Below are positions 6,615 to 63,924 of a stretch of 64,000 nt of DNA, piece after piece (the stretch's first letter is position 1; every line of letters starts with the position of its first letter). The position numbers and the translations under genes were made by a program. Source of the DNA: Deltaproteobacteria bacterium (lineage in GTDB: Bacteria; Myxococcota_A; Polyangia; Fen-1088). The notes beneath the pieces are model-generated. The model saw nothing but the letters and a program-made list of their open reading frames with translations, searched no databases and was not told the DNA's origin. The stretch lies in assembly GCA_033763315.1 (NCBI GenBank), contig JANRKS010000001.1:160001-224000 (forward strand), read 5' to 3'.

Positions 6615-6680
6615 TCACTTTGGTGAAACCGGCTGTGCAGGCCGGCATCCAAGGGGCCTCAACCACAAACGGAGGCTCAC

Positions 6681-18770: not shown

Positions 18771-18799
18771 TTTGAGCCGTTTGGTGGGTCTGCCGACAG
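18771..18799 (+). promoter_or_regulatory. Putative ECF promoter, cassette 1 (TGAGCC-N15-CGACAG), upstream of the sigma gene
   Basis: TTTGAGCCG at 18771-18779 and CGACAG at 18794-18799. The same motif and spacing recur at 22573-22601. Confidence 0.7.
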
Positions 18800-18818
18800 T
18801 TGATAGGTAGGTCCGCCC

Positions 18819-22572: not shown

Positions 22573-22601
22573 TTTGAGCCGGTTGACCGCACACGCGACA
22601 G
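22573..22601 (+). promoter_or_regulatory. Putative ECF promoter, cassette 1, upstream of the DUF1592 gene
   Basis: TTTGAGCCG at 22573-22581 and CGACAG at 22596-22601. Spacing is identical to the site at 18771-18799. Confidence 0.7.
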
Positions 22602-22609
22602 AGGCTTGT

Positions 22610-24211
22610 ATGACCCTTTGTATAAGGTGTGCAGCGCTGCCTTTGGTGTTGTTGGTTGCGGGGGCCTGCTCTGGCTCTATCGGTGGCGGCGGCTCAAACG
22701 CGGGTTCTGAAGATCCGGGCGGCGGCAATGGCGGCAACGCGGCCAGCGTGGACGAACCCACCGAGGCGCCCGAGGCCTCGTCTTTGTGTGCGGTGATGCC
22801 TCAGCGGCTGTGGCGTTTAACGCCGATGCAGCTTGAGCGAACGTATGCCGCCTTGCTGGGCGGCGATGCGGTCACCCCCGGCTTGGGCAAAGAGTTGTCT
22901 GGCTTCGTGCCAAAGGGTGCGTCGTTCTACAGCAACAACGAACCCATCTTGTCCGTGTCACCAGCTTTTTACGAACAGCTCTACAACGCGGTGGGCACGA
23001 TGGTGGAGCCGCTGAGCAAAACGCCCACAAAACTTGCGGGATGTTTCGCAGATGGTGTCGGTGAACCCTGCGTGAAGGCAACCGTCGCCGATCTGGGCCT
23101 GCGTGCTTTGCGGCGGCCCCTATCCGACGCCGAAGTGCAAACCTATGCTGACTTCTTCACCGGTTTGACCGGCAAAACCGACAAGACCACGGCCCTGGCA
23201 CGGACGCTGCAACGTTTGCTTATGCACCCAGAGGTTTTGTTTCGTTCTGAAGTTGGTGTGAAAGCCGACAAGCTCTACGCGCTCACTGACCTTGAGGTTG
23301 CCACCGCGGTGTCATACACGTTGTCGGGCGCCCCTGCGCAAGGCGCATTGTGGGAGGACGCCAAGACCAAGCGTTTAAACAACAAAGCGGTCACGCAACA
23401 CGCCCAACGCCTGTTGGCCGATCCCGCGTTGGTGCCTGAATTCTTCACGTTCTTGTTCGATTACCTGAAGGTGGAACTATCGTCCGCCGACGCCAAGGCT
23501 GCGCTCAAAGATTTCATCGTGGAAACCGTGTGGAAGGACGCGGGCGACTTCAAGACGCTGATGACTGCGCCTTACACATTTGCCGCGGGAAAGAAGACCA
23601 CGACAACGGAACCGCGGGCCGGCATTCTCACCACCAACGCCGTGCTGACGGTGGAGCGCAACCGCAGCGCCCGCGGCAAATTTATTCGCGAGCACTTCTT
23701 CTGTGAAGATCCCGTGTCGGTGCCGCTCGACGTGAACACCGACATCAATGCCCGCCGGGCCGAGCTTGAACAGGCCGCGGGGCGCACCTTGACGGACGAG
23801 GAGCTGCGCACGCGCCATGTCAGTGATCCCACGTGTGCGCCATGCCATTCCTTGATTGATCCCATCGCGCAGCCTCTGCATGTGTTTGATGATATGGGCC
23901 GTTACCGCACCTCTACCGCATCGGGAGCCATCGTCACCAAAGGCAAGATCACGGGCACCTTGATGACCGATGGAGACATCGCGGATGCACCGGATCTCGC
24001 CGCAAAGCTTGCGAATTCCGGCGAAGTGAGGCGGTGCTTTGTGCAGCAGACGTTGCAATTCGTCCGCGGCCGCCCTGCCACCCCAGAGGAAGAGTGTGTG
24101 GTCGATGTGTTTGTCAACAAGTTCGAGAAGAGCGGCGGCAACATTCGTCAGTTGCTCATCGACATCATCGGCTCTGACAATTTTCGTTTCCGCAGTGTCA
24201 ACGCACTTTAG
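22610..24211 (+). CDS. DUF1592/DUF1588/DUF1595/DUF1585-type lipoprotein with CxxCH heme motif (cassette 1)
   Basis: Lipobox VAGAC, LWRLT, RALRRPLS, PEVLFRSE, RAGILT, CAPCH and IDP...FDDMGRYR. Confidence 0.85.
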   Translation: MTLCIRCAALPLVLLVAGACSGSIGGGGSNAGSEDPGGGNGGNAASVDEPTEAPEASSLCAVMPQRLWRLTPMQLERTYAALLGGDAVTPGLGKELSGFVPKGASFYSNNEPILSVSPAFYEQLYNAVGTMVEPLSKTPTKLAGCFADGVGEPCVKATVADLGLRALRRPLSDAEVQTYADFFTGLTGKTDKTTALARTLQRLLMHPEVLFRSEVGVKADKLYALTDLEVATAVSYTLSGAPAQGALWEDAKTKRLNNKAVTQHAQRLLADPALVPEFFTFLFDYLKVELSSADAKAALKDFIVETVWKDAGDFKTLMTAPYTFAAGKKTTTTEPRAGILTTNAVLTVERNRSARGKFIREHFFCEDPVSVPLDVNTDINARRAELEQAAGRTLTDEELRTRHVSDPTCAPCHSLIDPIAQPLHVFDDMGRYRTSTASGAIVTKGKITGTLMTDGDIADAPDLAAKLANSGEVRRCFVQQTLQFVRGRPATPEEECVVDVFVNKFEKSGGNIRQLLIDIIGSDNFRFRSVNAL

Positions 24212-40577: not shown

Positions 40578-43500
40578 TTACGACGCTGGCGCGATTTCAT
40601 TCATATTGTCGCCCCGGGTGCATTCTGTTTCCATGGCGTTCAATAGCTCGAATAGCCGTTTGTGCGTCGGAAGGTTGAGAAACGCAGACTCCATTTCCGC
40701 ATCGCTCATTTCGCGTATCTTAACCTCCAGAGCCGCGGTGGCCCGTAGGAGCACACGGTGTGCGGCGTCTGTATCGCGCGCGGCAAGCAGGGCCTCTGCA
40801 AGCGCAAGCCGCACATACATTTCGCCTTCTTCCGGCAAGACGCTCAGATCGTCTATCAAGCGGCAGCCCTCATCTGCCAATGACAAGGCTTTGGTCACGT
40901 CATTTTCGAATAGCGCCATCTGTGAGGCCAGACCCAGCGCGTATGATCGGTATGGAGGCACAAGAGATGTGTTTTGAAGAAAGGGAGCGATAAATGGCGT
41001 TGCCGCTTCGGGCCGCTTTCTCATGATCGCGAGGTGCGCCCTGTAGAGCCCCACGCCCAGCTCGATCCACGCCAGCCCTTGGCCTTCAATGCAGCTTGCT
41101 GCTTGTTCCAATGCGCCATCGGCTTCACCAAGGCGACCATCGAAAAGCAGCGATTGGCCAATGTTGGCAAGCGTAATGCCCTCGAAAAACCTTGATCGAA
41201 TTTTGCGCGCGAACACAAGACTATGTTCGAGGTGCAACCGCGCTTGTTCGAGCATGCCGACTTCAAGAAGCAGAGCCGAAAGATTATTGCGGGAATTCGC
41301 CTCCAATAACGTGTTCTCCGCCTTAATGGCCTCGGCAAGCGCCGCTTCGTTGCTTTTTCGCGCCAGCCCCAGCTGCCCTTGTCGACGTTCCACCTTCGCT
41401 TGGGCATTAAGAATCTGGTTCTTCGTCTCATGGCGCAGCACGTTCGATCCCGCATTTTCAGCCTCGAACGCCAGCGCTCGCCCATCGTCGAGCATACCCG
41501 CATCAATGAAACAACCGGCGAGGTCGGCGAACGCAATACAGCGCTCGTTAAAGGCCTCGGCGTCCTGTGGGATGGCCCGTCGCGCTTTGTTTGCCAAAGC
41601 CCACACGTCGTTGTGGTGGATTCGTTCTCCAAGAATTCCTGCACTGCAATCAATCGCTTTGAACCAAGCCGCCGAGCCTTCAGGCAACAGCTTCATTGCC
41701 AACTGAGCTGGCTCCCAAGCCTGCTGCATTTTCCCCAGCCATCGGTAGCATGTGGCTTCCGTCAGTCTCGCCGTGCCCGCTTGTGCTGGCTCTGGATTGT
41801 ATGCGATGGCCTTCTGACAAAAGCAGATCGCACCCTCAAGATCGCCTGCGCTGTAGGCGTGGTCGGCCGCCTTTTGTGCCAAGACGCATGACTTTGGCCA
41901 ATCACAAGCGCGACTATAGTGCTCGAGCAGCACAGCAACGGGAGAAGTCCCTTGCTCCTCCAACCACTGCCCTGCCAGCTTGTGTCCCAAAACGCGATCG
42001 CCGTCTGTCAGGCTTTGGTACGTGGCTTCCCGAATCAGATCATGCTTGAAGACGATGGTGCCAGCGGCGCTGTCCCCCAGTATTTGCTCCTCTGCGAGAA
42101 GGGTGAGCCAATGCTCCAACGTATTCTGATCATCGCTGCCAAGCAAAGGCAGCAAGCCATCCCGATGGAATGTGCGCCCGAATATGCTGGCTGCGCGGAG
42201 CACGCGTCGGGCCGACGCCGGCAAATCATCGAGACGCGCTTGCACTGTCCCCAGCACAGCGTCAGGGATCTGGGTCTTTCCGCGCCGCTTTAGCGTTCGT
42301 GCCAGCTCCTCAATGAAAAAGGGGTTACCCTCGGCGCGCTCCGCTATCCAAGCCGCTGTCTCCGCTCGATCCGTTGCCAGCACCTGGCTTAGGAGCTGTT
42401 CTGACTCGACGCGGTTCAACGGTTCAAGGTTGCATTTATGGATTGACCGATCTTTCCAGATGTCAGGATGAATGTCATTGAGCTCAGCGCGTGCCAAACC
42501 GATGACGAAGCAGCTTTGCCTGCCTGCAGACTGGAACGCGCTGTTCAATAGCTTTACCGACGCATGGTCGGCCCAATGGATGTCGTCAAGGAGCACAACA
42601 ACACAATGATTCGTGCACGCGGCACGGATCATGTCCCCAAAAGCCAAGGCCATTTGTTCCGCCATGAACCTGGGATCACTACGCGCCGATTTTAAGGCGT
42701 TCTCGGAATCGCCGGTCGGCGTGGCTCCGATGAGGTCTGCCAAATACACGCGGCTGCCCTCGTGCTCGTCGCCCTGTTTCGTGAAAAATCTTTCCACCAG
42801 TTCGCGACGATTCTTCCTGGGTGTGTCCTCTTGAACTTGGAAGGCGCTCATGGCGAGCTGTCGAGCGAAACGCAGTGGCGATGCGGTCTGTAGTGCATCT
42901 CCTTGGGCTTGCCAAACCACGAACCGTTCCTTGCGTTGCCTCACAGTCGATAGGAACTCTGCGGCCATGCGGGACTTGCCCACGCCAGCCGGCCCTGTGT
43001 ACACGGCTATCTCAAGTTGATGTCGCTCTACGCTGCGTGCAAATTTCCGCAGCATCGCGGCCATCTCCTCGCGGCGCCCCACAAAACTTCGCTCTGCCTG
43101 CGTCGACACTGGCAGGGGGGTGGCGAATGCGTCGTCGACCAGAAGCCAAGCGTCGCGGTGGCTTCGAACCGCGAAGGTGCGGCTCATGAGTCCCGCCGTC
43201 TCTTCATCCGTGGAAATCTCCCCCGGTCCCGTCGATGAAAGCCGCTGGCTGGTTTCGTCCACCAGTTTGCCGAAAGGCAGCCCTTGCCGGACCACCGTTT
43301 TGCCCAATGAGATAGCAATCGAGGACTTAGGCCAGTGCCTCCTCAAGGTCAACGAGCAACGGGCGGCCTTCACCGCCAGCTCCGGTGCGGTTGCCTTGCC
43401 ACTGCAAGTTAGCAACAGCGTTCCATCGATCAGTTGATTCACCGCAAAACCAAACGCCGTCACACCCTCTTGAACGTGCTTTGGCAGCGAAGCGCTGGCG

Positions 43501-44513
43501 ACAGATGATGTTGGGTGCGCCGAACCTTGTTCTCGTCGGGACATTATGACGGCCACGACTCGTTGCTCATCAAGCGACAGTGAATCAGGGGCTTGGAGCT
43601 CGTTGGCGCGCGCCGTGGCATCGCGGAGTGAGGCCAACGCGGAAGTGGCGCTGGGTGATCGGTGTGCGCGGGCTTTGATGAGTAGCGAGCCAACCAAACG
43701 GCACAGGCTGGTGGAGGCGTGAGGGCAGATCTTCTCAAGTGGCGTTGGCTCGTCCACGCACACCTTGGCAAGGACCGCCATTGACGTTTCCCCGAAGAAG
43801 GGAGCGGTTCCAAACACAGCCTCGTACAGCACGGAACCCAGCGAGAATAGGTCGGAGCGTCCATCGATGTCGGGCAGCCCACGCGCCTGTTCGGGTGACA
43901 TATAGAGCGGGGTGCCGATGGCAAGGCGCTGTCCACCTGCAGGCGCATCGAACAGCCGTTTCACAACGCCAAAGTCTAGAACTTTGATTCGCTCGGGACT
44001 TCCGTCGCACAGAAATATGTTCGCCGGTTTGAGGTCGCGATGAACAATGCCGCGGCCGTGTGCCACGTGAAGCGCCGAGAGAACTTGGCTTGCAAGGCAG
44101 AGAGCTTGATCGCTTGTCAGCTGTTGCTTCAGCAAATAGCTTTGCAGGTCGCAGCCGGCAAGCCACTCCATCGCAAGATAGGGCTCACCCGTTTCAGCCA
44201 GCCCGTGATCAACATAGGCGACGATGTGAGGGTGGCGAAGCTCTCCTAGCGCTTCGATCTCGCGGAGAAACGAGGCGGTGGCCGAAGGGCTTTGAGTCTT
44301 GAGGAGCTTAACCGCCACAGTCTGTGACGTTTGCCGATCAAGCGCGCGCCACACCGTGCCCATGGCCCCTTGTCCGACCCTCTGACCGAGTTCGAACCGC
44401 CCCTTCAGGGTCTGCCCGCCCCGATCTTCCACATGGAGGTCCTCGGCAGTTCTTGACGAACCTTGAACGCCGCCAACGAACGGCCGAATCAGCTGTTGTG
44501 CGACCGTCGACAT
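40578..44513 (-). CDS. Ser/Thr kinase, degenerate cyclase-like domain, AAA/STAND ATPase and TPR multidomain protein
   Basis: Kinase motifs GQGAMG, HRDLKPAN and DFG. Walker A GPAGVGKS, Walker B LLDDIHWAD, AEGNPFFIEEL, and C-terminal helical repeats. Confidence 0.9.
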   Translation of the reverse strand: MSTVAQQLIRPFVGGVQGSSRTAEDLHVEDRGGQTLKGRFELGQRVGQGAMGTVWRALDRQTSQTVAVKLLKTQSPSATASFLREIEALGELRHPHIVAYVDHGLAETGEPYLAMEWLAGCDLQSYLLKQQLTSDQALCLASQVLSALHVAHGRGIVHRDLKPANIFLCDGSPERIKVLDFGVVKRLFDAPAGGQRLAIGTPLYMSPEQARGLPDIDGRSDLFSLGSVLYEAVFGTAPFFGETSMAVLAKVCVDEPTPLEKICPHASTSLCRLVGSLLIKARAHRSPSATSALASLRDATARANELQAPDSLSLDEQRVVAVIMSRREQGSAHPTSSVASASLPKHVQEGVTAFGFAVNQLIDGTLLLTCSGKATAPELAVKAARCSLTLRRHWPKSSIAISLGKTVVRQGLPFGKLVDETSQRLSSTGPGEISTDEETAGLMSRTFAVRSHRDAWLLVDDAFATPLPVSTQAERSFVGRREEMAAMLRKFARSVERHQLEIAVYTGPAGVGKSRMAAEFLSTVRQRKERFVVWQAQGDALQTASPLRFARQLAMSAFQVQEDTPRKNRRELVERFFTKQGDEHEGSRVYLADLIGATPTGDSENALKSARSDPRFMAEQMALAFGDMIRAACTNHCVVVLLDDIHWADHASVKLLNSAFQSAGRQSCFVIGLARAELNDIHPDIWKDRSIHKCNLEPLNRVESEQLLSQVLATDRAETAAWIAERAEGNPFFIEELARTLKRRGKTQIPDAVLGTVQARLDDLPASARRVLRAASIFGRTFHRDGLLPLLGSDDQNTLEHWLTLLAEEQILGDSAAGTIVFKHDLIREATYQSLTDGDRVLGHKLAGQWLEEQGTSPVAVLLEHYSRACDWPKSCVLAQKAADHAYSAGDLEGAICFCQKAIAYNPEPAQAGTARLTEATCYRWLGKMQQAWEPAQLAMKLLPEGSAAWFKAIDCSAGILGERIHHNDVWALANKARRAIPQDAEAFNERCIAFADLAGCFIDAGMLDDGRALAFEAENAGSNVLRHETKNQILNAQAKVERRQGQLGLARKSNEAALAEAIKAENTLLEANSRNNLSALLLEVGMLEQARLHLEHSLVFARKIRSRFFEGITLANIGQSLLFDGRLGEADGALEQAASCIEGQGLAWIELGVGLYRAHLAIMRKRPEAATPFIAPFLQNTSLVPPYRSYALGLASQMALFENDVTKALSLADEGCRLIDDLSVLPEEGEMYVRLALAEALLAARDTDAAHRVLLRATAALEVKIREMSDAEMESAFLNLPTHKRLFELLNAMETECTRGDNMNEIAPAS

Positions 44514-44585
44514 CTGTTGTCGGGTGCACAACACCTCAACAAACACAAAGCCTTGTAAGTGCGTGATTTGTGACGACCGAAGCTG

Positions 44586-44621: not shown

Positions 44622-46001
44622 GTGCGGCCAAGGAGGACGGGCAAATTGCGCAATGTATGGGCTTTGGGATTCGGTTTGGCTGTTTGTGGGTCAGCATGCG
44701 GGGCGTCTGATGGTGTGATGTTGATGGGAGATCCAACAACACAAGGCATCAAGTCCACCAACGGCTTAGCAACCGTGAACGGCCTAACGGCCCTCAATGG
44801 TTTGGCAACGAGCAATGGATTGGCGACGTCAAATGGGCTAGCAACGTCGAACGGCCTTGCGACGTCGAACGGCCTCGCCACATCCAATGGCCTCATGACC
44901 ACCACCGGTGGGCGAGCCACTGTTGAGTACATTGCGAAGTGTGCTCTTTCGAGCGGCGACTACTTCGATAAGCAGGACAACTATGGCACTTGGTACCGCT
45001 ATTACGGAGGCTTGGGCATAGGCTCAGGATGGAAGGCGGGAGCTTGTGACACTGGCTGCCAACAGAGGGTCACGGCCTGTCTATTGTCTCACCTGAACAG
45101 CACCGGCAACCGTGTGCCGATTTTCGTCAACGCGGATCCAAATGTGATGCCGTCTGTAGGCATGAGCATGCCGTACGCGTCCGGCAGCGACGCTGCCATG
45201 CAAGAGGGTGTGTTCTTTGGCAACGTCATTGCGCAGAACCCGCCTTTGGCTTTTTACGTCAAGGGCAACGCGTTCAAGGCGAGCGTTCCTGGCAGGTTGG
45301 GCGCAAGCTCCAGCAATCCGTATAGGCCATTCGAAGGATACCGCCCGGACGAGTCTGGCTGGTACTCGGCGCGCGCGGACAAGCTCTGCCAAACCAAAGA
45401 CATAGGGGACGGCGAACACGTTGACTACAGTCAATGCCAAGCATCAGACGCGCCTTATGCTTATTGGACACGTTCGTGGTTGAATGTGATGACGACGTAC
45501 GTGAACAGCAACTACAACGGATCCGTCACGCAAAATTTTGCAGTGAATACCTTCAACTTCGATACCGATACGACGGGCTTTAAGACCTCGTCGCCAGGTG
45601 AAGTCTGGAGCAGGTCGGGCAGCTTCGACTTCTCAAACGGCGTTGCTTGGTCAACATCTGGCAGGCTCGAAGTCGTGGATAACCATGGTGGCCGCCGTCT
45701 TTGCCCTGGCGGCGACCGCGAGCACGTTGTGATCACGAAGAATGGTGGCGAACCCTTCTCATTGACGGCGTTACGCTTGAACCACCGCTTCGATACAGCC
45801 GCTTCGACTGCAACCATCACTGGATATGTGAAGGGATCAAGCATGCGAAAGCAAATGACGGTCACGATTCCGGCCACCACCAACAATGCCAGCACCGCAA
45901 ACGTAGCGCCTACATTCTCGGGTTGGGACAATCTCATCAAAGTGGAGATTCGCGAAGTGGGCAGTATGTTTTGCGTGGACGACATCGGTCTGAAGTCGTA
46001 A
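44622..46001 (+). CDS. Secreted/lipoprotein with xxNGLx hexapeptide repeats and Cys-rich domain
   Basis: Signal with GSAC, eight NGL repeats, a YIAKCAL...GGLGIG..W...CDTGCQQRVTACLLSHLN domain and a beta-rich C-terminus. Confidence 0.8.
   Translation: MRPRRTGKLRNVWALGFGLAVCGSACGASDGVMLMGDPTTQGIKSTNGLATVNGLTALNGLATSNGLATSNGLATSNGLATSNGLATSNGLMTTTGGRATVEYIAKCALSSGDYFDKQDNYGTWYRYYGGLGIGSGWKAGACDTGCQQRVTACLLSHLNSTGNRVPIFVNADPNVMPSVGMSMPYASGSDAAMQEGVFFGNVIAQNPPLAFYVKGNAFKASVPGRLGASSSNPYRPFEGYRPDESGWYSARADKLCQTKDIGDGEHVDYSQCQASDAPYAYWTRSWLNVMTTYVNSNYNGSVTQNFAVNTFNFDTDTTGFKTSSPGEVWSRSGSFDFSNGVAWSTSGRLEVVDNHGGRRLCPGGDREHVVITKNGGEPFSLTALRLNHRFDTAASTATITGYVKGSSMRKQMTVTIPATTNNASTANVAPTFSGWDNLIKVEIREVGSMFCVDDIGLKS
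44754..44897 (+). repeat. 18-bp-period coding repeat, 8 x (T/S/A)xNGL(A/T/M)
   Basis: STNGLA TVNGLT ALNGLA (TSNGLA)x4 TSNGLM. Codons differ synonymously between copies. Confidence 0.9.
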
Positions 46002-51205: not shown

Positions 51206-51757
51206 ATGAACGCGCCGTCTACTGGTCCTGTAAAAGAGCTTTGGTTGGTCCGGCATGGTCAAACCACCAGCAACCGCGATGGCCTTCTGGCCGGCTGGGA
51301 TGACGTGAGCCTCACAGAGGTGGGCGAAGCCCAAGCGCGCGCCTTGCGTGAACGTTTGGCGGGGGAGCTGTTCGATCAAGCCTGGTCGTCAGATTTGTTA
51401 AGGGCGGTGCGCACGGCGGAGCTGGGGTATGGGCCCGTGCCCGCGGACCGGCGGCTGCGTGAAATCGATTTTGGTGAGCTGGATCGTTTGCCGTGGACCA
51501 CCTTGGCCACAGAACACAAAGACGCGCTTTTGGCGTTCGATGGCTTCGTAGCACCGGGGGGCGAATCGCTAATGCAGCTTGAGGAGCGTGTGGTGGGCTT
51601 CATTGATGAATTGCCGCCTGGCCGTCATCTCTTGTTCACCCACGGCGGCGTCATCCGTTTGTTGTGTCACCGGTTGGGCCAGCCCGAATTCGTGCAGCCA
51701 GGTACGATCACGGTCATCGATTGGCATACCCGCACGTTACTTCGACGAAGCGCGTGA
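51206..51757 (+). CDS. Histidine phosphatase family protein
   Basis: LVRHGQT, SSDLLRA, LREIDFG, PGGES and FTHGG. Confidence 0.92.
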   Translation: MNAPSTGPVKELWLVRHGQTTSNRDGLLAGWDDVSLTEVGEAQARALRERLAGELFDQAWSSDLLRAVRTAELGYGPVPADRRLREIDFGELDRLPWTTLATEHKDALLAFDGFVAPGGESLMQLEERVVGFIDELPPGRHLLFTHGGVIRLLCHRLGQPEFVQPGTITVIDWHTRTLLRRSA

Positions 51758-55577: not shown

Positions 55578-56063
55578 CTATCTTTCAATCTCATCTCGGC
55601 CCACAAACTCAAGCGCCATCTCCTTGCCACAGGCCACAAAGCCTGCGCGCTCATAAACGGGGCGCGCCCGCGGCTCGGCGTGTAACGAGAGGCGGCAGCA
55701 AAGGGCAGCCTGCGCGGCAGTGATGACGGCATCAAGCAAACGCGCAGCGATGCCACACCCTCGCCACGCCGGCAGCGTGTACATGTTCATGATGTAACCT
55801 TCGCGGCCGTTGAAGTTCGAATACGAGGGCGGCTTCCGCAGAACCACGAGGCCGCTTGTTGCCACGACACGGTTCTCGTGGCGTGCAAGATGAGCGACGA
55901 ATTCTCCCGTTGGGACCGAGTGGCTAAAATAGGCGCGCAGTTCGCTTTGCAATGAGGCTGGCGCAGGGGCGCCGTTGACCTCTTCGAGAAACGCAAGTCG
56001 CATCGCGACCAAAGTCTCGATGTCATCAGGCGTGGCGGGAGAGAATGAGAGTGAGCCGAACAT
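55578..56063 (-). CDS. GNAT-family N-acetyltransferase
   Basis: ATPDDIETL, YIMNMYTLPAWRGCGIA and VYERAGF. Confidence 0.9.
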   Translation of the reverse strand: MFGSLSFSPATPDDIETLVAMRLAFLEEVNGAPAPASLQSELRAYFSHSVPTGEFVAHLARHENRVVATSGLVVLRKPPSYSNFNGREGYIMNMYTLPAWRGCGIAARLLDAVITAAQAALCCRLSLHAEPRARPVYERAGFVACGKEMALEFVGRDEIER

Positions 56064-56078
56064 GTTGGTGGAGAGCAC

Positions 56079-56235
56079 TATAGGCCGTCGTCACAGCAAT
56101 CCAACATCCAGCCACCTAGATCTTCCGGCGGGACAGACCTGAACAGGGACGCTTCGCTCAGAAATTACGGGCGAACCTCCGCAGCCATGCCCCATGCACG
56201 ATCAGCTGTTCGAGGGGGAGCTTCCGCGTATTCAT
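56079..56235 (-). pseudogene. Possible degraded ECF sigma factor fragment
   Basis: ATG 56235 gives MNTRKLPLEQLIVHGAWLRRFARNF*. A shifted frame continues LSEASLFRSVPPEDLGGWM, which resembles sigma region 2 pieces. Confidence 0.3.
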
Positions 56236-56386: not shown

Positions 56387-56415
56387 TGAGCCCTGGAATG
56401 GACGGCGGGGCCCTT
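56387..56415 (+). promoter_or_regulatory. Putative ECF promoter, cassette 2 (TGAGCC-N17-GCCC), upstream of the sigma gene
   Basis: TGAGCC at 56387-56392 and GCCCTT at 56410-56415. The same spacing recurs at 60616-60645. Confidence 0.6.
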
Positions 56416-56455
56416 CAACAGAGGCCTCCGTGCGTTTGCACGCTTTGGGCCTACA

Positions 56456-57103
56456 ATGAACGCTCTGGTCATGTCCAACGCTCCCCCCCGAATGGCCCTG
56501 GTCCCCCCGGCCCGGGTCGATGATCTCGATCAGGATGCGGCGTTGGCGCAGGCCGCCCTGGCGGGGTTGCCGGGCGCTCACAGGGCTTTGTGGGAGCGGT
56601 TCGTTCCCATGGTACGGCGGATGATCAGGCGCCAGCTGGGCCCCACTTCCAACAGTGACGTCGACGATGTGATTCAGGATGTCTTTGCGCTGGTGTTCCG
56701 CGATCTGAGGAACTTGCGTGAGCCCCGTGCCCTCTGCGGCTTCGTCGCAACTTTGACCGTGCACGCTGTGCGGCATGAGCTTCGCCGCCGCAAGTTGCGT
56801 CGCTTGGTGAGCCTCACATCCACGGGGCATGCGCCCGATGTTGAATCCGCAGACGCAGATCCCGTGGCCCGCTTGGCCCTTCACCGTCTTTATTCGGCGC
56901 TTGAGCGCTTCAAGGTGGTTGATCGGATGATCTTCGTCCTTCGTTATGTGGAGGGGCATGATGTGCTTGAGGTAGCCGCCGCCTTGGATCTTTCGCCGGC
57001 CACCGTGAAAAGACGAGCGGCGCACGTGTCAGAACGCCTATCCAAAGTGGTTGCCAACGATCGGTTCTTGATCGATTACCTGCAGCAGGACGGCGGGCAA
57101 TGA
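56456..57103 (+). CDS. ECF RNA polymerase sigma factor (cassette 2)
   Basis: LWERFVPMVRR...DVDDVIQDVF, then DRMIFVLRYVEG...SPATVKRR. Confidence 0.9.
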   Translation: MNALVMSNAPPRMALVPPARVDDLDQDAALAQAALAGLPGAHRALWERFVPMVRRMIRRQLGPTSNSDVDDVIQDVFALVFRDLRNLREPRALCGFVATLTVHAVRHELRRRKLRRLVSLTSTGHAPDVESADADPVARLALHRLYSALERFKVVDRMIFVLRYVEGHDVLEVAAALDLSPATVKRRAAHVSERLSKVVANDRFLIDYLQQDGGQ

Positions 57104-58365
57104 CACAACAAAAGGGAGCAGACGCCGAACGAGTTGCGGCCAAGGTTGCCTCCTTGATCCAAAGCCAGTATCCAAGCGAAGGTTCATCACCTGTAAAGCT
57201 TGTGTCGTTGGATGCTGTGACACACCACCGCGTGCGCGCGTGGAAATGGGCGTTGCTGTTGCCGGTGCCAGCGCTGGCGGCCGCTGCCCTGCTGTTCTAC
57301 ATCGACACGAAGCCACTGACATTCGCATTGTCTGGCGGTCACTTGTCGCCCAACCAAGAAGTTGTGGCGGATGGTGAACACGACTCCGCGTTGCGCTTCT
57401 CTGACGGCACACAGGTAGCCTTGTCTTCTCGAAGCGAGGCAAAGATTCAAGCGATCACCGCGCATGGTGCAAGTGTGAGGCTAGGTCGTGGCCGTGCGAC
57501 CGCGGCTGTGGTGCATCGGCCGCGCGCTCGTTGGTATTTTTTGGCTGGTCCATTTCAAATCGAAGTGGTGGGCACAAACTTCAGCGTCGACTGGCAACCA
57601 CAGGACGAGCGACTTGAGTTGACCATGCACAACGGCAAAGTCCGCGTCACGGGGCCGCTTGTGCCCGACGAAACCTTCTTGACGCAAGGCCAGCGTTTGC
57701 TCGTCAGCAAAGCGGACCTGCGCATTACAAACATAATGGATGATGTGGCACAACCGACCCTGGCTGAGGCGCCGGCGCCCGCAGCTGTGGCGCCTCCTTC
57801 TGGGGCCGCGCGTGTAGAGCCACCGGGTACGCAAGCAACAAACGGTGAGCGTCTTTCAAAGGCGTCCCGCGGCACACGAGGCAAGTCGCCAATCATTGTG
57901 GATGTCGCGCAATTGGTCGCGAAAGGCTCTTACGCCCAGGCGCTTGCCCACGTGCAGGCCAACGGCTTGAGCACGTTCTTGGAACGGGCGCCTTCGCACG
58001 ATCTTGCCGCGCTGGCGGAAGCCGCCCGCTATGAGCAAAATGTGGATGTTGCGCGCGCCTCGCTTCAGGCTCAACGCCAGCGCTTTGCTCGCACGCGCGC
58101 TGGATCAGAAGCGGCCTTTCACCTGGGGCGCCTGGCCGAAGACGTGGACAACATGCCTGCGCGCGCGGCAGAGTGGTTTGGCCTTTATCTGAGGGAACAA
58201 CCGACGGGCCGCTTTGCCTCTGAGGGTTTGGGGCGCCAGATGGTGGCCACGAGCCGCATGGGGGACCGCGCTGCGGCTCGAGCCTTGGCGCAAGAGTATG
58301 TGAGTCGTTTTCCGCAAGGCACTTACGCCACGGTTGCGCGCCAACTTGCGGCGCCCAAGCTCTAG
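57100..58365 (+). CDS. FecR-domain anti-sigma factor with C-terminal TPR-like domain (cassette 2)
   Basis: TM helix, LRFSDGT, AGPFQIEVVGTNFSV and GKVRV. TPR region AAFHLGRL...YVSRFPQG. Confidence 0.85.
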   Translation: MTQQKGADAERVAAKVASLIQSQYPSEGSSPVKLVSLDAVTHHRVRAWKWALLLPVPALAAAALLFYIDTKPLTFALSGGHLSPNQEVVADGEHDSALRFSDGTQVALSSRSEAKIQAITAHGASVRLGRGRATAAVVHRPRARWYFLAGPFQIEVVGTNFSVDWQPQDERLELTMHNGKVRVTGPLVPDETFLTQGQRLLVSKADLRITNIMDDVAQPTLAEAPAPAAVAPPSGAARVEPPGTQATNGERLSKASRGTRGKSPIIVDVAQLVAKGSYAQALAHVQANGLSTFLERAPSHDLAALAEAARYEQNVDVARASLQAQRQRFARTRAGSEAAFHLGRLAEDVDNMPARAAEWFGLYLREQPTGRFASEGLGRQMVATSRMGDRAAARALAQEYVSRFPQGTYATVARQLAAPKL

Positions 58366-58368
58366 CGA

Positions 58369-59373
58369 ATGTTCAATCGGGCCGTTGCGCTGGTGCCTCT
58401 TCTGATGGTGTTGTCGTTCAACGCTCGTGCGTCTGCACGTGTTGTGATTCTGCAGCCTGTTGGGCAAAAGACGGCGGCCCTTGAAGGCGCTTTGCAGCGG
58501 ATTGCGGCTGAACTGCGGCTTGAGAGCTATGCACCAAGGGTTCAACCGTGGGTGGTAACTGCGCCTTCTGTGGAACAGTTGGAAGCGGCCGCCACGCAGC
58601 AACTTGCTTTTGGCGCTTTGGTGCTGCTGAACCTTCCCGAAGCAGGGTCAGTGCAGGTGCTTTCGTTCGACGGCACACGGAAGACGTGGGTGCTACGCAC
58701 GGTCGCGCTTGAGCAAGAAGGTGACGCGGCTTCGGTGTTGAGTATTCGCGCGGTTGAGATCATGCGCGCACATTTTCTCGAACGTAGATACAACCCTGAA
58801 GTCGTCGCTCCTGCGCGGATAGCTGTGCCGACGTCGCAAACTCTGTGGCCACATAGGTGGATGTTGGGCGTGCGCGCAGCGCGGGTGGTTGCATCGCAGG
58901 CAGATGGCGTTCGGTCTTTGCGGTTGGATGCCGCATTATCGCTGCACCAATGGGCGATCAAAGCCACGGTTGTTCCCGTAAGCACTTCAATCGAAAACCA
59001 AGCCCCTGCCGGTGCCGCCACGATGTCACAGCAATCCGCTTGGCTCAGTGGTGCCTACCTTCTGCGGATGCGAACGCGCGCGGTGATACCTTACGTTGCC
59101 GCTCACGCGGGGGCCGCGAGGCTGCAAGCGCATGGCAGCGCCACGCTGCCGTATCAGTCAACGAATGCGGCTTATGTGACGACGTTGTTTGGCGCGGGCG
59201 CGGGCAGCGTGTGGTGGGTCAACGACCAGTGGGGCCTGTCGTTAAACGCGGATGTGCTGTGGTTTGCATCCGGCGCTTCATTGCAGATCGATGGCGTTGA
59301 GCAACGCCGTTTGGGGCAGCCGCAGTTGCTTGCGTCGTTGGGCGCGATCTTCTCGTGGGGGCAAGGACGTTGA
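58369..59373 (+). CDS. Putative outer-membrane protein: periplasmic domain plus small beta-barrel (cassette 2)
   Basis: Signal peptide ending ASA, LSIRAVEIMRA (compare VALAVAEF in copy 1), and amphipathic strands ending LGAIFSW. Confidence 0.6.
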   Translation: MFNRAVALVPLLMVLSFNARASARVVILQPVGQKTAALEGALQRIAAELRLESYAPRVQPWVVTAPSVEQLEAAATQQLAFGALVLLNLPEAGSVQVLSFDGTRKTWVLRTVALEQEGDAASVLSIRAVEIMRAHFLERRYNPEVVAPARIAVPTSQTLWPHRWMLGVRAARVVASQADGVRSLRLDAALSLHQWAIKATVVPVSTSIENQAPAGAATMSQQSAWLSGAYLLRMRTRAVIPYVAAHAGAARLQAHGSATLPYQSTNAAYVTTLFGAGAGSVWWVNDQWGLSLNADVLWFASGASLQIDGVEQRRLGQPQLLASLGAIFSWGQGR

Positions 59374-60599
59374 AGCGGCTAGTTTGTCTCGTTGCGTGTT
59401 TCGTCGCCTGTGACGCCACGCCCTTGAACGTCGTGCAAAAAAGCGGGTGTCCGCAAGTGGAGGGTGCGCGTCAGGCCGCAAGCACAAGTGCCTTCTTTGA
59501 TACGTTGGGCTTCAACGTGGCTGTCAGTGAGTTGGAGAACAAACGCGCTGATGGCTTAACGCCGTTGGCACACCTGCAGGCGCTTGGGGTGAAGCATCTG
59601 CGCGGCAACGCGAGTGTGCCGTTGGGCTTGAGTGGCGCCTTGGCCACCACGCTGTTGAACGCTGGCATGCGCTACACGTTTGCGCTTTCGCTCAAGACCG
59701 ATCTGGATGCCTTTTTGCCCATGACCTTGGGCGTGACGGAAGCCGTGCAGGTGGCAAGCCCGGCCAACGATTGGATCGGCCCCTATTCAGTGACTGAACT
59801 TCCGGCCGCGGCCGAACGATGGCGGGCGCAATTGAATGCATTGGACAGCGCAAAGCGGCCAGCGTTGATCGGGCCCATCATCTTTCAAACCATGGATGCA
59901 ATGGATCTGGGGAGCGTTGGCCCTTGGATCGACTTTGGCGGCTTTCGCTACACCATCGGTCTTGTGGCGCCTAGTCGTTCTTTTGGTGGCGATTGGGAAC
60001 AGATGGCTTTGAGCGTCTCAGGTGGAAAACCACTTGTTGCATCGAAAGCTTCATACGCTACCAGCCGGCCCGGTTTGCCGGAGCCACAGCTTTCAGAAGA
60101 TCTGCAGGCGAAGTACGTTGTGCGGCTATTTCTTGAGGGCTTCAACCACGCGGTGATACGAACGCACTACGATAAGCTCTATGACGACGACTGCAGTGAA
60201 AGCGGATGCACGAGCGGCCTCATACGCGTGGATGGCACATCCAAGCCTTCGTACCTTGCGTGGGCCGCGTTGGTCAAAGCTTTGGGCGCGCCTTCACAGC
60301 CGCCCACGCCGCGGGCGCTGCCGCTGACCATCGAGGCGCCCACAAACGTTCATTCTCTGCTGCTCAGCAACAGCGAAGGGGCCTTCTTTCTTCTGTTGTG
60401 GCTTGAAGTCAATGGCAAGCCTGGCGAGGATCAACAAGCCCCAGCCGTTGTGCAAGTGGGTGTGCCGCTGGCCTCAGCCCAAATGCTTGATCTCCGCCAA
60501 CCCGGGCAAGCGCCCAGCGACTTGGGGAAGATGGGGCGTTTCTCGCTGGCGGTCTCTGACGCACCTATGCTCATCACGCTCACGCCCGCGTGTTTTTGA
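59370..60599 (+). CDS. Glycoside hydrolase clan-A-like lipoprotein, probably inactive (cassette 2)
   Basis: TTG start overlaps the upstream TGA and there is a lipobox FVAC. FFDTLGFN, LGVKHLRG and GLIRVDGTSKPSY, with a C-terminal beta-sandwich. Confidence 0.7.
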   Translation: MKRLVCLVACFVACDATPLNVVQKSGCPQVEGARQAASTSAFFDTLGFNVAVSELENKRADGLTPLAHLQALGVKHLRGNASVPLGLSGALATTLLNAGMRYTFALSLKTDLDAFLPMTLGVTEAVQVASPANDWIGPYSVTELPAAAERWRAQLNALDSAKRPALIGPIIFQTMDAMDLGSVGPWIDFGGFRYTIGLVAPSRSFGGDWEQMALSVSGGKPLVASKASYATSRPGLPEPQLSEDLQAKYVVRLFLEGFNHAVIRTHYDKLYDDDCSESGCTSGLIRVDGTSKPSYLAWAALVKALGAPSQPPTPRALPLTIEAPTNVHSLLLSNSEGAFFLLLWLEVNGKPGEDQQAPAVVQVGVPLASAQMLDLRQPGQAPSDLGKMGRFSLAVSDAPMLITLTPACF

Positions 60600-60615
60600 T
60601 CACCGACGAAATATT

Positions 60616-60645
60616 TGAGCCGCGTTCGCTGAGTCACAGCCCCTT
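60616..60645 (+). promoter_or_regulatory. Putative ECF promoter, cassette 2, upstream of the DUF1592 gene
   Basis: TGAGCC at 60616-60621 and GCCCCTT at 60639-60645. Confidence 0.6.
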
Positions 60646-60688
60646 GTTTATTAGCCAGCCGCTTTGGGTGGCCAAGGGAGTTCCTCGG

Positions 60689-62416
60689 ATGAATCGGATA
60701 AGCAGTTCACGTTCAAGCCGGTCAAACACGCCCCGTGCCAGGGCCGTTGTGGTGGCGCCCTTCCTCGTTGCTTGGTTCGTGTCAGCGCCGGGGTGTTCGG
60801 GCCATGTGGCTGAGCCCGCTGGCGGCGGCGACACGCAAGATCCTGGCGGTGCCAGCCCAGATGGTGCCGATGTCACGGGTGGCAACACCCTCAAGGCAGA
60901 AAGCGCCGGCCCCAAACCCTTACGACGCCTGACGCGCGACGAATACAACAACACTGTTCGTGACCTGTTGGGCGACAGCACGGCACCCGCTGCGGCCTTT
61001 GCCGACGACGTGCGAGGCGAGGGTGGGTTCTATTCACCCAACCGCGTGTCCGGCGTGGAAACCAGCGCTTACAGAGACGCGGCAGAAACGCTGGCCAGTG
61101 CGGCTGTGCAACGAACGCCGGCGTTGGCCAACTGTTCGGGCGCAGAGCCCATTTGTGCTGACGCCTTCATCGAAAGCTTCGGCCGCAAAGCCTTTCGCCG
61201 CCCGTTGAGCGCGGTAGAAAATCAGTCGCTTAAAGCTCTTTATACTAAGGTGCGCGCCGAACCCCTCAAGGCGCCTCACAAAGAAGCCATTCAGATCCTC
61301 ATCGCGGCCATGCTGCAAGCGCCTCAGTTTTTGTACCATTGGGAAGCGACCAGCTCTGCGCGTGAGCGTGATGGCAGTCTGGTGAAACTGGATGGCTTCG
61401 AGATCGCTTCGCGGTTGTCGTACTTCCTGTGGTCATCAATGCCCGACGATGAACTTTTGTCGGCGGCCGCCGCGGGTGAGCTTGATTCACAATCCAAGGT
61501 GGCCGAACACGCGGAGCGCTTGCTTGCTGATAAACGCGCTTCAAGCACAGTTTCGAGCTTCTTCGCACAGCTGCTCGACCTTGAGCGAGTGCCTGGCCTT
61601 GTCAAAGACCAAAGCGCCTACCCGGCGTTCAACAAAGATCTGGCCAAAGCGATGGTGGCCGAAGCAGACGCTTTCGTTAAATACGCGGTGCTCGACGACG
61701 GCAAGTATGAAACGCTGCTCACGTCACCCGTATCATTCATCAACGCCGACCTGGCGATGCTGTATGGCAAAGCGGGGGTGTCAGGCGCCGAACTTCGTAA
61801 AACCGAACTCAACCGGGATCAACGCTTTGGACTATTAACCCAAGGCGCGTTCTTGGCGGGCCAGGCGAACACATATGAAACGTCGCCGGTGCTGCGAGGT
61901 AAGTTGGTGCTCACGCGCTTGTTGTGCGAAACCGTTCCGCCGCCGCCGCCTGATGTGGACACGAGTTTGGGCACGCCCCAACCAGGCCAGCAAACACGAG
62001 AACGCTATGAGTCGCATTCAACGAATGCGTCCTGCGCCGGTTGTCACAAGACGCTTGATCCGTTTGGCTTCGCCTTCGAGAGCTATGATGGCATTGGGCG
62101 GTATCGAACCATGGACGCGGGGCGCCCCGTGCGCACAGATGGCAAGGTCAGTTTGCCCTCCGGTGACATCAGCTTCTCGAACGCCAAAGAGCTTGTGAGC
62201 CTCATTGCCAAGAGCCCCGAAGGCTTGGGCTGCATGGCGACCCAGTGGCTGCGGTTTGGTTTGGGACGGGCGGACGACGCTGCTGATGAAGGCTCACGTG
62301 AGCGCGCCTTGGCTGCGTTTAAGCAAGCGGGCGGAAATTTCCGCGAGCTGCTTTTGTCGATCGTGAAGTCCAAAACGTTCCGATATCGGGCTTTGTCCGA
62401 AGGCGAGGTGCTTTGA
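60689..62416 (+). CDS. DUF1592/DUF1587/DUF1588/DUF1595/DUF1585-type lipoprotein with CxxCH (cassette 2)
   Basis: LRRLTRDEYNNTVRDLLG, KAFRRPL, EIASRLSYFLWSSMPDDEL, RFGLLTQ, TSPVLRG, CAGCH and YDGIGRYR. Confidence 0.92.
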   Translation: MNRISSSRSSRSNTPRARAVVVAPFLVAWFVSAPGCSGHVAEPAGGGDTQDPGGASPDGADVTGGNTLKAESAGPKPLRRLTRDEYNNTVRDLLGDSTAPAAAFADDVRGEGGFYSPNRVSGVETSAYRDAAETLASAAVQRTPALANCSGAEPICADAFIESFGRKAFRRPLSAVENQSLKALYTKVRAEPLKAPHKEAIQILIAAMLQAPQFLYHWEATSSARERDGSLVKLDGFEIASRLSYFLWSSMPDDELLSAAAAGELDSQSKVAEHAERLLADKRASSTVSSFFAQLLDLERVPGLVKDQSAYPAFNKDLAKAMVAEADAFVKYAVLDDGKYETLLTSPVSFINADLAMLYGKAGVSGAELRKTELNRDQRFGLLTQGAFLAGQANTYETSPVLRGKLVLTRLLCETVPPPPPDVDTSLGTPQPGQQTRERYESHSTNASCAGCHKTLDPFGFAFESYDGIGRYRTMDAGRPVRTDGKVSLPSGDISFSNAKELVSLIAKSPEGLGCMATQWLRFGLGRADDAADEGSRERALAAFKQAGGNFRELLLSIVKSKTFRYRALSEGEVL

Positions 62417-63924
62417 TGTTTCCATCACGTCGAGGGTTTCTAAAGGCAGCTGGCCTCAGTGGTGCGATGTTGCCGTTGCTCAACGCCGATCTCGCTCGTG
62501 CCGCGGCGCCACCCAAACGTTTGGTGGTGTTCTGTTGGAGCAACGGCATTCGTCGCAATGACTTCTGGCCGGAAGTGGGACCGACCAAAAGCGCCACGGA
62601 CTGGATATTGCCTGTGCCCGGCACAGCGCCACCGCAACAAACACCTGTGGCTTTGCCGATGCTTGAGCCATTGGTCAAAGAATTCCGCAACGACATGATC
62701 ATCGCTGGCGGCTTCGACGTAAGCGCCCTCTATGAAGCCCGCAAACCGAATTACCAGGCCACGCCTTCCCGTGGCGCCGGCCACAACACAATGTGTTGCT
62801 TGCTCACGGGTGCCTATCCAGCGCAATACCGCGATGGCTTTCAATCATCGGGCGGCCCCTCGGTGGATCAAGTGATCGGCCGCGAACTGGCCAAACGCCA
62901 CGGGTTGGCCTTCCCGTCTTTGGTGATCGGCGGCCGCGCCAACGCAGGCTTTCAAGGCACCATCTCTTACGCAGGTGTTGACGATCCGGGCATCACGCCC
63001 GAAAACGATCCCAGCAATCTATTCAAGACCCTGTTTGCGGGGCGCAATCTTCCGAAGGGCACCTTCGATCGCGTGGCTGCCACCCGGCAGAGCATCCTTG
63101 ATTACGTCGCTCCTGAACTCGTGCGGTTCGGCGGCAGATTTGGCGGCGAAGACAAGCAGAAGATCAGCGCGCATCTGCAAACCATTCGCGATCTCGAAAA
63201 CCAGCTCAAAGGTGGCGCCAACCCGGTTGAATGCACGGCGCCCACGACGCCCACGGCGGACTACAAACCCAACGACATGCTTCCTGCGTTGCTGAAGATG
63301 CAATCAGATCTTCTGGCCACAGCCTTCAAATGTGATCTGACCCGCGTCGCCACTTTCAATTTCGAGAACACGGGCGGCAACAACATTGCGTTCAGTTGGC
63401 TTGGCCAAGAGTTCGTCGGCAAGGGCGACGAATACCCCACGCGTCAGCACCACGACATCGCGCACAATTTCTTTCGCAGTGACATAGGGGCACTTCGTCA
63501 CAGCCGGGTGAACCAGTGGTTCTTCGAGCAGGTGGCGTATTTCGTGCGCCTGTTGAAGAACACACCCGAAGGTGCGGGCACCATGCTTGATAACACCGCG
63601 GTCGTGGTGTTGAACTCGATGGGCCAAAACCACGCCTCGGCAGGTTTGCCTTGTGTGATCCTGGGAAGCTGCGGCGGATACTTTAAAACGGGTGGCCGCT
63701 TGGTGCGCATGAACGAGTTCGCCACACAAAACAAGTATCCGTTTTACTGGGGCCCCGGCGAGCTGGGCATGCGCGATGGCAAACTGATGGAGTGGAACGC
63801 CTATGCTGTGGCTGGTGCGCCCATCAACCGCTTGCTGGTGTCGTTGGCCAACGCTATGGACGTTCCCACAGCCACGTTTGGTGAGCCGCAATATGGCGGC
63901 GAGATTACGGAGCTGCGCGGGTAA
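62416..63924 (+). CDS. DUF1552 (HXXSHH-like) Tat-exported protein (cassette 2)
   Basis: Tat motif SRRGFLK, PKRLVV, PSVDQVI, ENDP, FKCDLTRVAT, QHHDIAH and GTMLDNT. Confidence 0.92.
   Translation: MFPSRRGFLKAAGLSGAMLPLLNADLARAAAPPKRLVVFCWSNGIRRNDFWPEVGPTKSATDWILPVPGTAPPQQTPVALPMLEPLVKEFRNDMIIAGGFDVSALYEARKPNYQATPSRGAGHNTMCCLLTGAYPAQYRDGFQSSGGPSVDQVIGRELAKRHGLAFPSLVIGGRANAGFQGTISYAGVDDPGITPENDPSNLFKTLFAGRNLPKGTFDRVAATRQSILDYVAPELVRFGGRFGGEDKQKISAHLQTIRDLENQLKGGANPVECTAPTTPTADYKPNDMLPALLKMQSDLLATAFKCDLTRVATFNFENTGGNNIAFSWLGQEFVGKGDEYPTRQHHDIAHNFFRSDIGALRHSRVNQWFFEQVAYFVRLLKNTPEGAGTMLDNTAVVVLNSMGQNHASAGLPCVILGSCGGYFKTGGRLVRMNEFATQNKYPFYWGPGELGMRDGKLMEWNAYAVAGAPINRLLVSLANAMDVPTATFGEPQYGGEITELRG

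Follow-up and report, generated by a model that had tools for sequence, protein, structure and literature searches.

The DNA analysed here (the window) is a stretch of 64,000 nucleotides from a Deltaproteobacteria bacterium (GenBank assembly GCA_033763315.1, contig JANRKS010000001.1, positions 160,001 to 224,000 of the forward strand). It harbors two cassettes, each headed by the gene of a sigma factor of the extracytoplasmic function (ECF) type and with a common gene order: sigma factor, FecR-TPR membrane protein, exported protein, lipoprotein-like protein, DUF1592 and DUF1552 (Table 1). The subject of this study is cassette 2, its sigma factor (sigma 2) and two promoter-like sites of the form TGAGCC-N17-GCCC. 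Both sites occur as first described in a sequence-only reading, with the hexamers at 56387-56392 and 60616-60621 and GCCC at 56410-56413 and 60639-60642, and they lie 69 nt before the ATG of sigma 2 and 73 nt before that of DUF1592. The corresponding sites of cassette 1, at 18773 and 22575, occupy the same two positions, ahead of the sigma gene and ahead of DUF1592. Sigma 2 is built as an ECF (group 4) sigma factor, with regions 2 and 4 only and about 200 residues: Sigma70_r2 and r4_2 score above their Pfam cut-offs in this 215-residue protein, and TIGR02937 reaches 53.9 bits (cut-off 42.9). The protein segments by which the two sigma factors were originally compared are present in both; sigma 1 and sigma 2 are 34% identical over 157 residues.

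Table 1. Features of cassette 2 and comparison features of cassette 1 (window coordinates).
Feature	Position	Strand	Remarks
Family-consensus site TGAGCCG...CACT, 18-nt spacer	56052..56079	+	335 nt upstream of the cassette 2 site; overlaps first codons of an opposite-strand GNAT gene
Putative -35 TGAGCC, cassette 2 autoregulatory promoter	56387..56392	+	A-tract just upstream
Putative -10 region GCCCTT	56410..56415	+	Core CCCT 56411-56414, 18 nt past the -35
ECF sigma factor 2, subfamily B	56456..57103	+	F at RpoE W73, E85, C-terminal DxxLxxY tail; start possibly 5 codons later
Codon of Asp83 (RpoE Ala60 position) in sigma 2	56702..56704	+	Candidate for specifying C as the second -10 base
Putative anti-sigma	57100..58365	+	~50-aa cytoplasmic N-terminus, one transmembrane helix, FecR domain, TPR-like C-terminus; start overlaps sigma stop
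Exported protein conserved in myxobacteria, probably an outer-membrane beta-barrel	58369..59373	+	Feature score 0.90 to OMP_b-brl cluster (a lead); structure TM 0.49/0.72 to porin cluster
Probable lipoprotein, GH5/GH39-like fold	59355..60599	+	Unrelated to the gene at the same position in cassette 1
Weak terminator-like hairpin ahead of second promoter	60575..60597	+	Scan total at chance (10 found, 11.6 expected)
Putative -35 TGAGCC, DUF1592 promoter	60616..60621	+	89-nt intergenic gap, AT-rich upstream
Putative -10 region GCCCCTT	60639..60645	+	Core readable as CCCC (18 nt) or CCCT (19 nt)
DUF1592-family protein (PSD2-5, PSCyt3)	60689..62416	+	ATG 60689, ribosome-binding site 60674-60680; longest open reading frame from 60590
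DUF1552 (HXXSHH) protein with Tat-type signal	62413..63924	+	
Cassette 1 sigma promoter TGAGCC-N18-CAGT (comparison site)	18773..18800	+	
ECF sigma factor 1, subfamily A, deviant L3 loop	18819..19397	+	
Cassette 1 DUF1592 promoter TGAGCC-N18-CAGA (comparison site)	22575..22602	+	

The hexamer TGAGCC alone carries little meaning, because the window contains 50 such sites against 38.7 expected. The bare pattern TGAGCC-N17-GCCC matches three times (51306, 56387 and 60616; 0.25-0.32 expected), with a probability of about 0.04 for two or more matches, and taken by itself it is weak. What makes a chance origin of the cassette 2 pair unlikely is the combination of position, mutual agreement and flanking composition. 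TGAGCC falls within any given 100-nt stretch with P=0.038. From N17 to N22 the 56387 and 60616 sites share five of six bases; of the 1035 pairs that the remaining 46 TGAGCC sites form, 6 agree to that extent. The three AT-richest 8-nt upstream flanks among all 50 sites are those of 60616, 56387 and 22575. The cassette 2 promoter pair is confirmed as real. The third match, at 51306 (+), falls within a histidine phosphatase gene, some 480 nt ahead of a gene for an M50 peptidase, and is probably due to chance. Scans of the window for sigma-70 promoters and for terminators gave chance levels only.

Relatives of the two sigma factors were collected by a profile search (1355 representatives at E up to 1e-30) and by a genome scan with one region 4 pattern built from 7 sequences, which samples the family unevenly; the scan gave 110 relatives, of which 80 loci were kept (71 labelled Myxococcota), with 81 family sigma genes in total. 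A word-index homolog search returned 8 proteins only, and a plasmid search three sigma genes, distant and unrelated. The closest homolog, P0085, is 53% identical in the core and, like P0067 and P0155, has Arg59-Asp60. The family divides into two clades, A (sigma 1-like, 42 including sigma 1) and B (sigma 2-like, 37 including sigma 2), with 4 members lacking a scored anti-sigma; each clade is tied to its own type of anti-sigma, which requires one change on the tree. TGAGCC occurs upstream of 53 of the 81 related sigma genes, where 5.4 are expected, and TGAGCC or TGAGCT upstream of 63. It is the family-wide -35 element, in agreement with the initial proposal that both cassettes have this element in common. 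The region 4 residues described as shared are likewise near-invariant (RpoE numbering): K171 is found in 75 of 83 proteins and R172 in all 83. TGAGCY lies upstream of 61/73 genes encoding K171 vs. 2/8 encoding R171, and both R171 cases fail the -35 context filter. In sigma factors with Arg-171 (L005, L006, L011, L013, L016, L002), TGAT- and TGAC-type hexamers can be read by hand at promoter spacing in the sigma upstream regions or at nearby genes; the -35 thus varies too within the subclade of sigma 2 itself. At many loci (e.g., L001, L024, L033 and, in the window, 22575-22610) the -35 is positioned 33-45 nt before the start codon, implying leaderless or near-leaderless transcripts. At L018 (~9900-9950) it is embedded in a five-fold 13-nt tandem repeat in which, by hand, CACT appears at 18 nt only in the last copy.

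For the -10 element, sites were chosen by -35 context alone. After removal of the 18 of 81 sigma genes without TGAGCY, and of L013, L018, L028 and L034, which fail the context filter, 59 of 63 remained. The family -10 consensus is CACT, with a spacer of 17-19 nt, mostly 18. Among 34 clusters at 70% identity (window included), the core trimer is CAC in 19, GAC in 5, CAT, CAG and CTC in 2 each, and CCC, CCT, CGC and TTC in 1 each; the CGC and TTC assignments are doubtful, and the register of deviant sites, resting on a CACT-seeded model, is not certain. In the family register, 18 nt past TGAGCC, cassette 1 has CAG(T/A) and cassette 2 CCC(T/C), each one base off the consensus, at different positions. 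The division into subfamilies A and B is ruled out as the -10 code, CAC being present in 14/21 A-side and 5/13 B-side clusters; GAC is found only in B.

That these deviations are specific to the local sigma factor is indicated by second sites within the same loci. Sites with TGAGCYG near gene starts were listed blind to the -10; of 46 in the loci, 34 from 20 clusters were kept, leaving out the window and L055, and the 12 dropped either had no primary site or belonged to L055 with its two sigma genes. Second sites match the promoter of their own sigma gene at 92 of 170 bases, compared with 60.5+/-6.7 for the promoters of other clusters, a value reached in 0 of 10,000 permutations. The result is robust to a same-subfamily null, to averaging per cluster and to a shift-tolerant score, and control windows in the spacer (P=0.105) and downstream (P=0.199) were also scored. 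At non-CAC loci, the trimer of the sigma promoter recurs at 9 of 16 second sites (0.57 expected); 7 are without a match, and none of the 16 is CAC. Private -10 variants are thus real across Myxococcota, and the initial claim of divergent, sigma-specific -10 elements is upheld. L071, which has homologs of every cassette 1 gene, shows CAG at three sites, and L060 shows CCT at three. TGAGCC also precedes 8 of 13 DUF1592 genes in related loci; where a local primary site is available, the -10 is that of the local sigma factor in 4 of 5, L041 being mismatched. The motif was predicted to recur upstream of orthologous genes, and for cassette 1 it does so through one locus (L071, with its three CAG sites); for cassette 2 the loci contain no close ortholog.

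The recurrence of deviant trimers bears on the possibility that sigma 2, or any member of the family, combines TGAGCC with a tolerant -10 and that the cassettes cross-activate at the promoter, separation being achieved only by the anti-sigmas and the differing input lipoproteins. Such relaxed specificity would fit the use of one promoter by most of the family, the pairing of A and B sigma factors with their own anti-sigma types and the difference in the fourth gene between the cassettes; it would also agree with the report that the anti-sigmas of one group are mostly orthogonal (PMC7406223; here and below, the cited papers are represented by the available parts of their text). Tolerant reading, however, would not preserve the same deviant trimer at two to three sites per locus, let alone leave CAC absent from all 16 second sites, and it is judged unlikely.

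Several points count against CCC as the element read by sigma 2. At 56387 the G found after TGAGCC in 80% of family sites is missing; the -35 context score of this site is 1.5, so that it would fail the filter of 2.5 applied to the relatives, and it was included by hand. The same core recurs on the minus strand at 6679 (TGAGCC-N18-CCCT), where no gene lies downstream; the hexamer there is complementary to the ribosome-binding region of NmrA, and the site is directed into a 5'-nucleotidase gene at its 3' end. TGAGCY-N17..19-CCC is found upstream of 0 of the 81 related sigma genes, and the nearest sampled relatives, 43-46% identical, have CAC (L001) or, by hand and with a variant -35, GAC/CAC (L005, L006, L013). 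Because no close ortholog was sampled, the case for CCC rests on the window pair together with the family rule. Finally, the consensus CAC site at 56052 could itself be the sigma 2 promoter, both GCCC sites being decayed or fortuitous and sigma 2 reading the family consensus. This full consensus site has a chance expectation of ~6e-4 per 500 nt (post hoc) and of 0.16 per window, and L001, the closest relative with His84, does have CACT. Yet it lies 404 nt from the start, and a consensus site so far upstream is absent from all related loci; 56387, in contrast, is 141 nt ahead of the domain start, a distance usual in subfamily B. Moreover, the DUF1592 gene has a CCC site only, and the two CCC sites match each other and share the most AT-rich flanks. 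A promoter for sigma 2 at 56052 is accordingly very improbable. The site may instead provide input from a CAC-type paralog, a possible cascade, or be due to chance. A second full consensus site, at 33250 (+) with a 17-nt spacer, lies antisense within a gene for a VWA-domain protein and 347 nt ahead of murC; it is probably fortuitous.

The sequence-only reading further proposed that a common -35 combined with divergent -10 elements insulates paralogous ECF circuits from one another. For cassettes 1 and 2 this is plausible: little cross-activation is to be expected, because two of the three core bases in their -10 elements are different and ECF activity responds strongly to the change of a single base or residue (PMC7776599). 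As a general design, the proposal is so far not borne out. CAC is common to 19 of the 32 non-window clusters, and at L055 (9858-12894) two sigma genes 3 kb apart and 66% identical, together with divergent genes, all have one -10 (ACACT), making this locus, on its sequence, a case without promoter insulation. Same-genome pairs differ in two of the three that can be tested, which is the chance level, because random clusters differ with probability 0.65 (hand arithmetic). The stronger version, in which selection actively drives the paralogs of one genome to distinct -10 trimers on a fixed -35, would account for the nine core trimers among 34 clusters, for the strong -10 matching within loci and for the differences between cassettes 1 and 2 and between L031 (GAC) and L060 (CCT), which share one genome. 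Against the wide sharing of CAC, the identical -10 of the L055 pair and the chance-level count of differing pairs among the only three that can be tested, an actively selected code appears rather unlikely.

Residues that may set the -10 can be sought in the known ECF contacts, in which the three core bases are assigned to residue 84, to a pocket including 56, 60, 77 and 80, and to the L3 loop (PMC7776599; PMC6411747), with Ala60 named as a contact of base -11 (PMC7776599). The region 2 loop, originally held responsible for the -10 of cassette 2, does not explain it: the sigma 2 loop, LREP, is the family consensus (R65 in 74%, P67 in 70% and A69 in 73% of 153 proteins). Sigma 1 is the one with the deviant loop, E65 being present in 5% and E69 in 2% of the same proteins. 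The L3 loop would therefore fit the third-base change of cassette 1, a link weakened by three further clusters in which Glu65 occurs together with C. In cassette 2, Asp83 (RpoE position 60), one residue before the segment originally compared, is put forward tentatively as the best candidate. C at the second -10 base accompanies Asp60 in 2 of 3 Asp clusters vs. 0 of 31 others (Fisher P=0.005, post hoc and with the window supplying one of the two), and the two proteins that combine Asp60 with C, sigma 2 and that of L060, belong to different subfamilies and are 28% identical. Likewise post hoc, G occupies the first base in 5 of the 9 clusters that have a small residue at 84 and in 0 of the 25 others. 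These assignments have to be set against the following: no residue-base association is significant after family-wise correction (best P=0.215, for Asp60), and column-wise mutual information likewise gives nothing significant once corrected; the third Asp60 cluster, of six sequences, keeps A at the second base; and an independent-pairs test for residue 84 on the tree yields 1 supported pair, too few. His80, another candidate for the cause of CCC, is ruled out, as it accompanies A in L031 and L038.

The remaining genes of cassette 2 suggest how sigma 2 may be controlled. In both cassettes the anti-sigma candidate has a FecR match above the Pfam cut-off; TPR matches stay below the cut-off, and there is one transmembrane helix. 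When sigma 2 is modelled in complex with the anti-sigma N-terminus (50 residues), the score is 0.84, against 0.00 for the best of 3 controls, with at least 84% of contacts in agreement between runs and a partner pLDDT of at least 72; the mark applied is reached by 116/157 solved pairs and 2/215 mismatched pairs. Because similar sigma/anti-sigma complexes have already been solved, this pass may reflect likeness rather than binding, and the model gives no comparison between cognate and swapped partners. Within the anti-sigma N-terminus (57100-57249), the second helix appears atypical for subfamily B, with 7-24% identity and the RxRL motif missing; the complex model passed nonetheless. The fourth genes of the two cassettes do not match, which suggests different inputs. 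The GH5/GH39-like lipoprotein (59355-60599) could be a carbohydrate sensor. Elsewhere in the window, an exported protein (44622-46001) consists in part of tandem NGLATS-type repeats and has no Pfam match.

Taken as a whole, cassette 2 is probably a local cell-surface signalling module whose sigma factor uses a private promoter. The membrane FecR-TPR protein would hold sigma 2 through its short cytoplasmic N-terminus, a contact backed by the structure model. Once freed, sigma 2 would direct RNA polymerase to its own operon (56387) and to the DUF1592-DUF1552 pair (60616), as ECF autoregulation and the family statistics suggest. Its region 4 would read TGAGCC, like most of the family, and its region 2 the private -10 CCC(Y) instead of CAC(T), probably by way of an altered second-base pocket in which Asp at the Ala60 position is the best candidate. 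Cassette 1 would have altered the third base instead (CAG), along with its L3 loop. Such variants most likely arose by co-evolution of sigma factor and promoter in small local regulons, insulation being a probable consequence for the cassette 1/2 pair and not a rule of the family. A bolder extension is a natural combinatorial code, in which a fixed -35 (K171/R172) is joined to -10 bases tuned separately by residue 84, residue 60 and the L3 loop, with CAC as a shared layer, CAG and CCC as insulated leaf circuits and 56052 placing cassette 2 in a cascade under a CAC-type paralog; it is unlikely.

The closest described group appears to be ECF267 (Casas-Pastor et al. 2021, PMC7826278), which the proteins of both cassettes resemble. 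As in that group, an ECF sigma factor is followed at +1 by a putative anti-sigma in which a FecR-like domain is fused to TPR. No TonB-dependent receptor is named in the available description of ECF267; the 50 window proteins scanned gave no Pfam match to such a receptor. The genera Sorangium and Chondromyces of ECF267 (PMC7826278) both occur among the relatives collected here (L007, L015, L021-L023), and their loci fall into subfamily B with sigma 2 (98* clade). Protein kinases are reported in the genetic context of ECF267, at an average of 1.3-2.7 (PMC7826278). Neither cassette contains one inside; the window has kinases at 40578-44546 (Pfam) and 13571-15790 (by reading), and a simple motif scan finds a kinase motif in 10 of 80 loci, including L021-L023. 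A difference concerns the promoter, reported as not conserved in ECF267 (PMC7826278), a negative drawn from 6 genomes and not a defining trait, whereas here TGAGCC precedes 53/81 related sigma genes and is present at all five Sorangium/Chondromyces loci. Beyond the conserved -35, the family across Myxococcota shows a consensus for the -10 from which private variants depart, a division into two subfamilies and, by modelling, a contact between sigma and anti-sigma. An ECF267-like family listed without a promoter motif in the reference classification is thereby given one. The regulons of these sigma factors therefore become predictable in myxobacterial genomes, and the unstudied DUF1592/DUF1552 gene pairs are linked to this regulation. 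The literature search, from which most subscription literature lay outside, found no report of the motif or of a function for DUF1592/DUF1552, and the promoter logos of PMC7826278 and Datasets S1-S2 of PMC7776599 may hold the motif. The promoters of M. xanthus DdvS (AAc/cGT), as described in the text available, are of a different type.

With FecI/FecR the cassettes share a membrane anti-sigma with a periplasmic FecR domain. They differ in that FecI-like groups lack autoregulation (PMC3817407, in the part available), whereas the cassettes carry an autoregulatory-type upstream motif, and in that FecI-like systems use TonB-dependent receptors; the cassettes carry a small beta-barrel-like protein and a lipoprotein. 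The equivalog cut-offs for the FecI-like groups (ECF239-243) are far from reached (FecI 26.2 vs. 260, FecR 20.1 vs. 385). The general ECF code (Todor et al. 2020, PMC7776599) and the sigmaH structure (PMC6411747) agree with the present family in that the -35 is read by region 4 residues 171/172 and three successive -10 bases are read by residue 84, by the -11 pocket and by the L3 loop. The code was built across all ECFs, however, and in its Table S1 the -11 base is assigned to Lys56 and Val79, where position 60 is indicated here. The strings Sorangium, Chondromyces, Myxococc- and TGAGCC are absent from the eight supplements of PMC7776599 scanned (Datasets S1 and S2 stood outside that scan). 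Because specificity through regions 2 and 4 is already established, the gain is a new worked case and not a new mechanism.

That one -35 with different -10 elements yields orthogonal switches was described by Rhodius et al. (2013, PMC3817407), between ECF groups and with engineered region 2/4 chimeras; the variation seen here is natural and lies within one family. With at least six -10 variants occurring naturally on a single -35, the divergence of paralogous sigma factors can be tested directly, and the set may also be a source of related orthogonal switches. The SigI/RsgI systems of Clostridium thermocellum (PMC10575876) similarly comprise many paralogous sigma/anti-sigma pairs per genome, with one promoter element in common and the other differing. 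They form a mirror image of the family described here, since the -10 (CGWA) is common and the -35 region differs; the SigI proteins are not ECF sigma 4 proteins, and their arrangement has been demonstrated experimentally.

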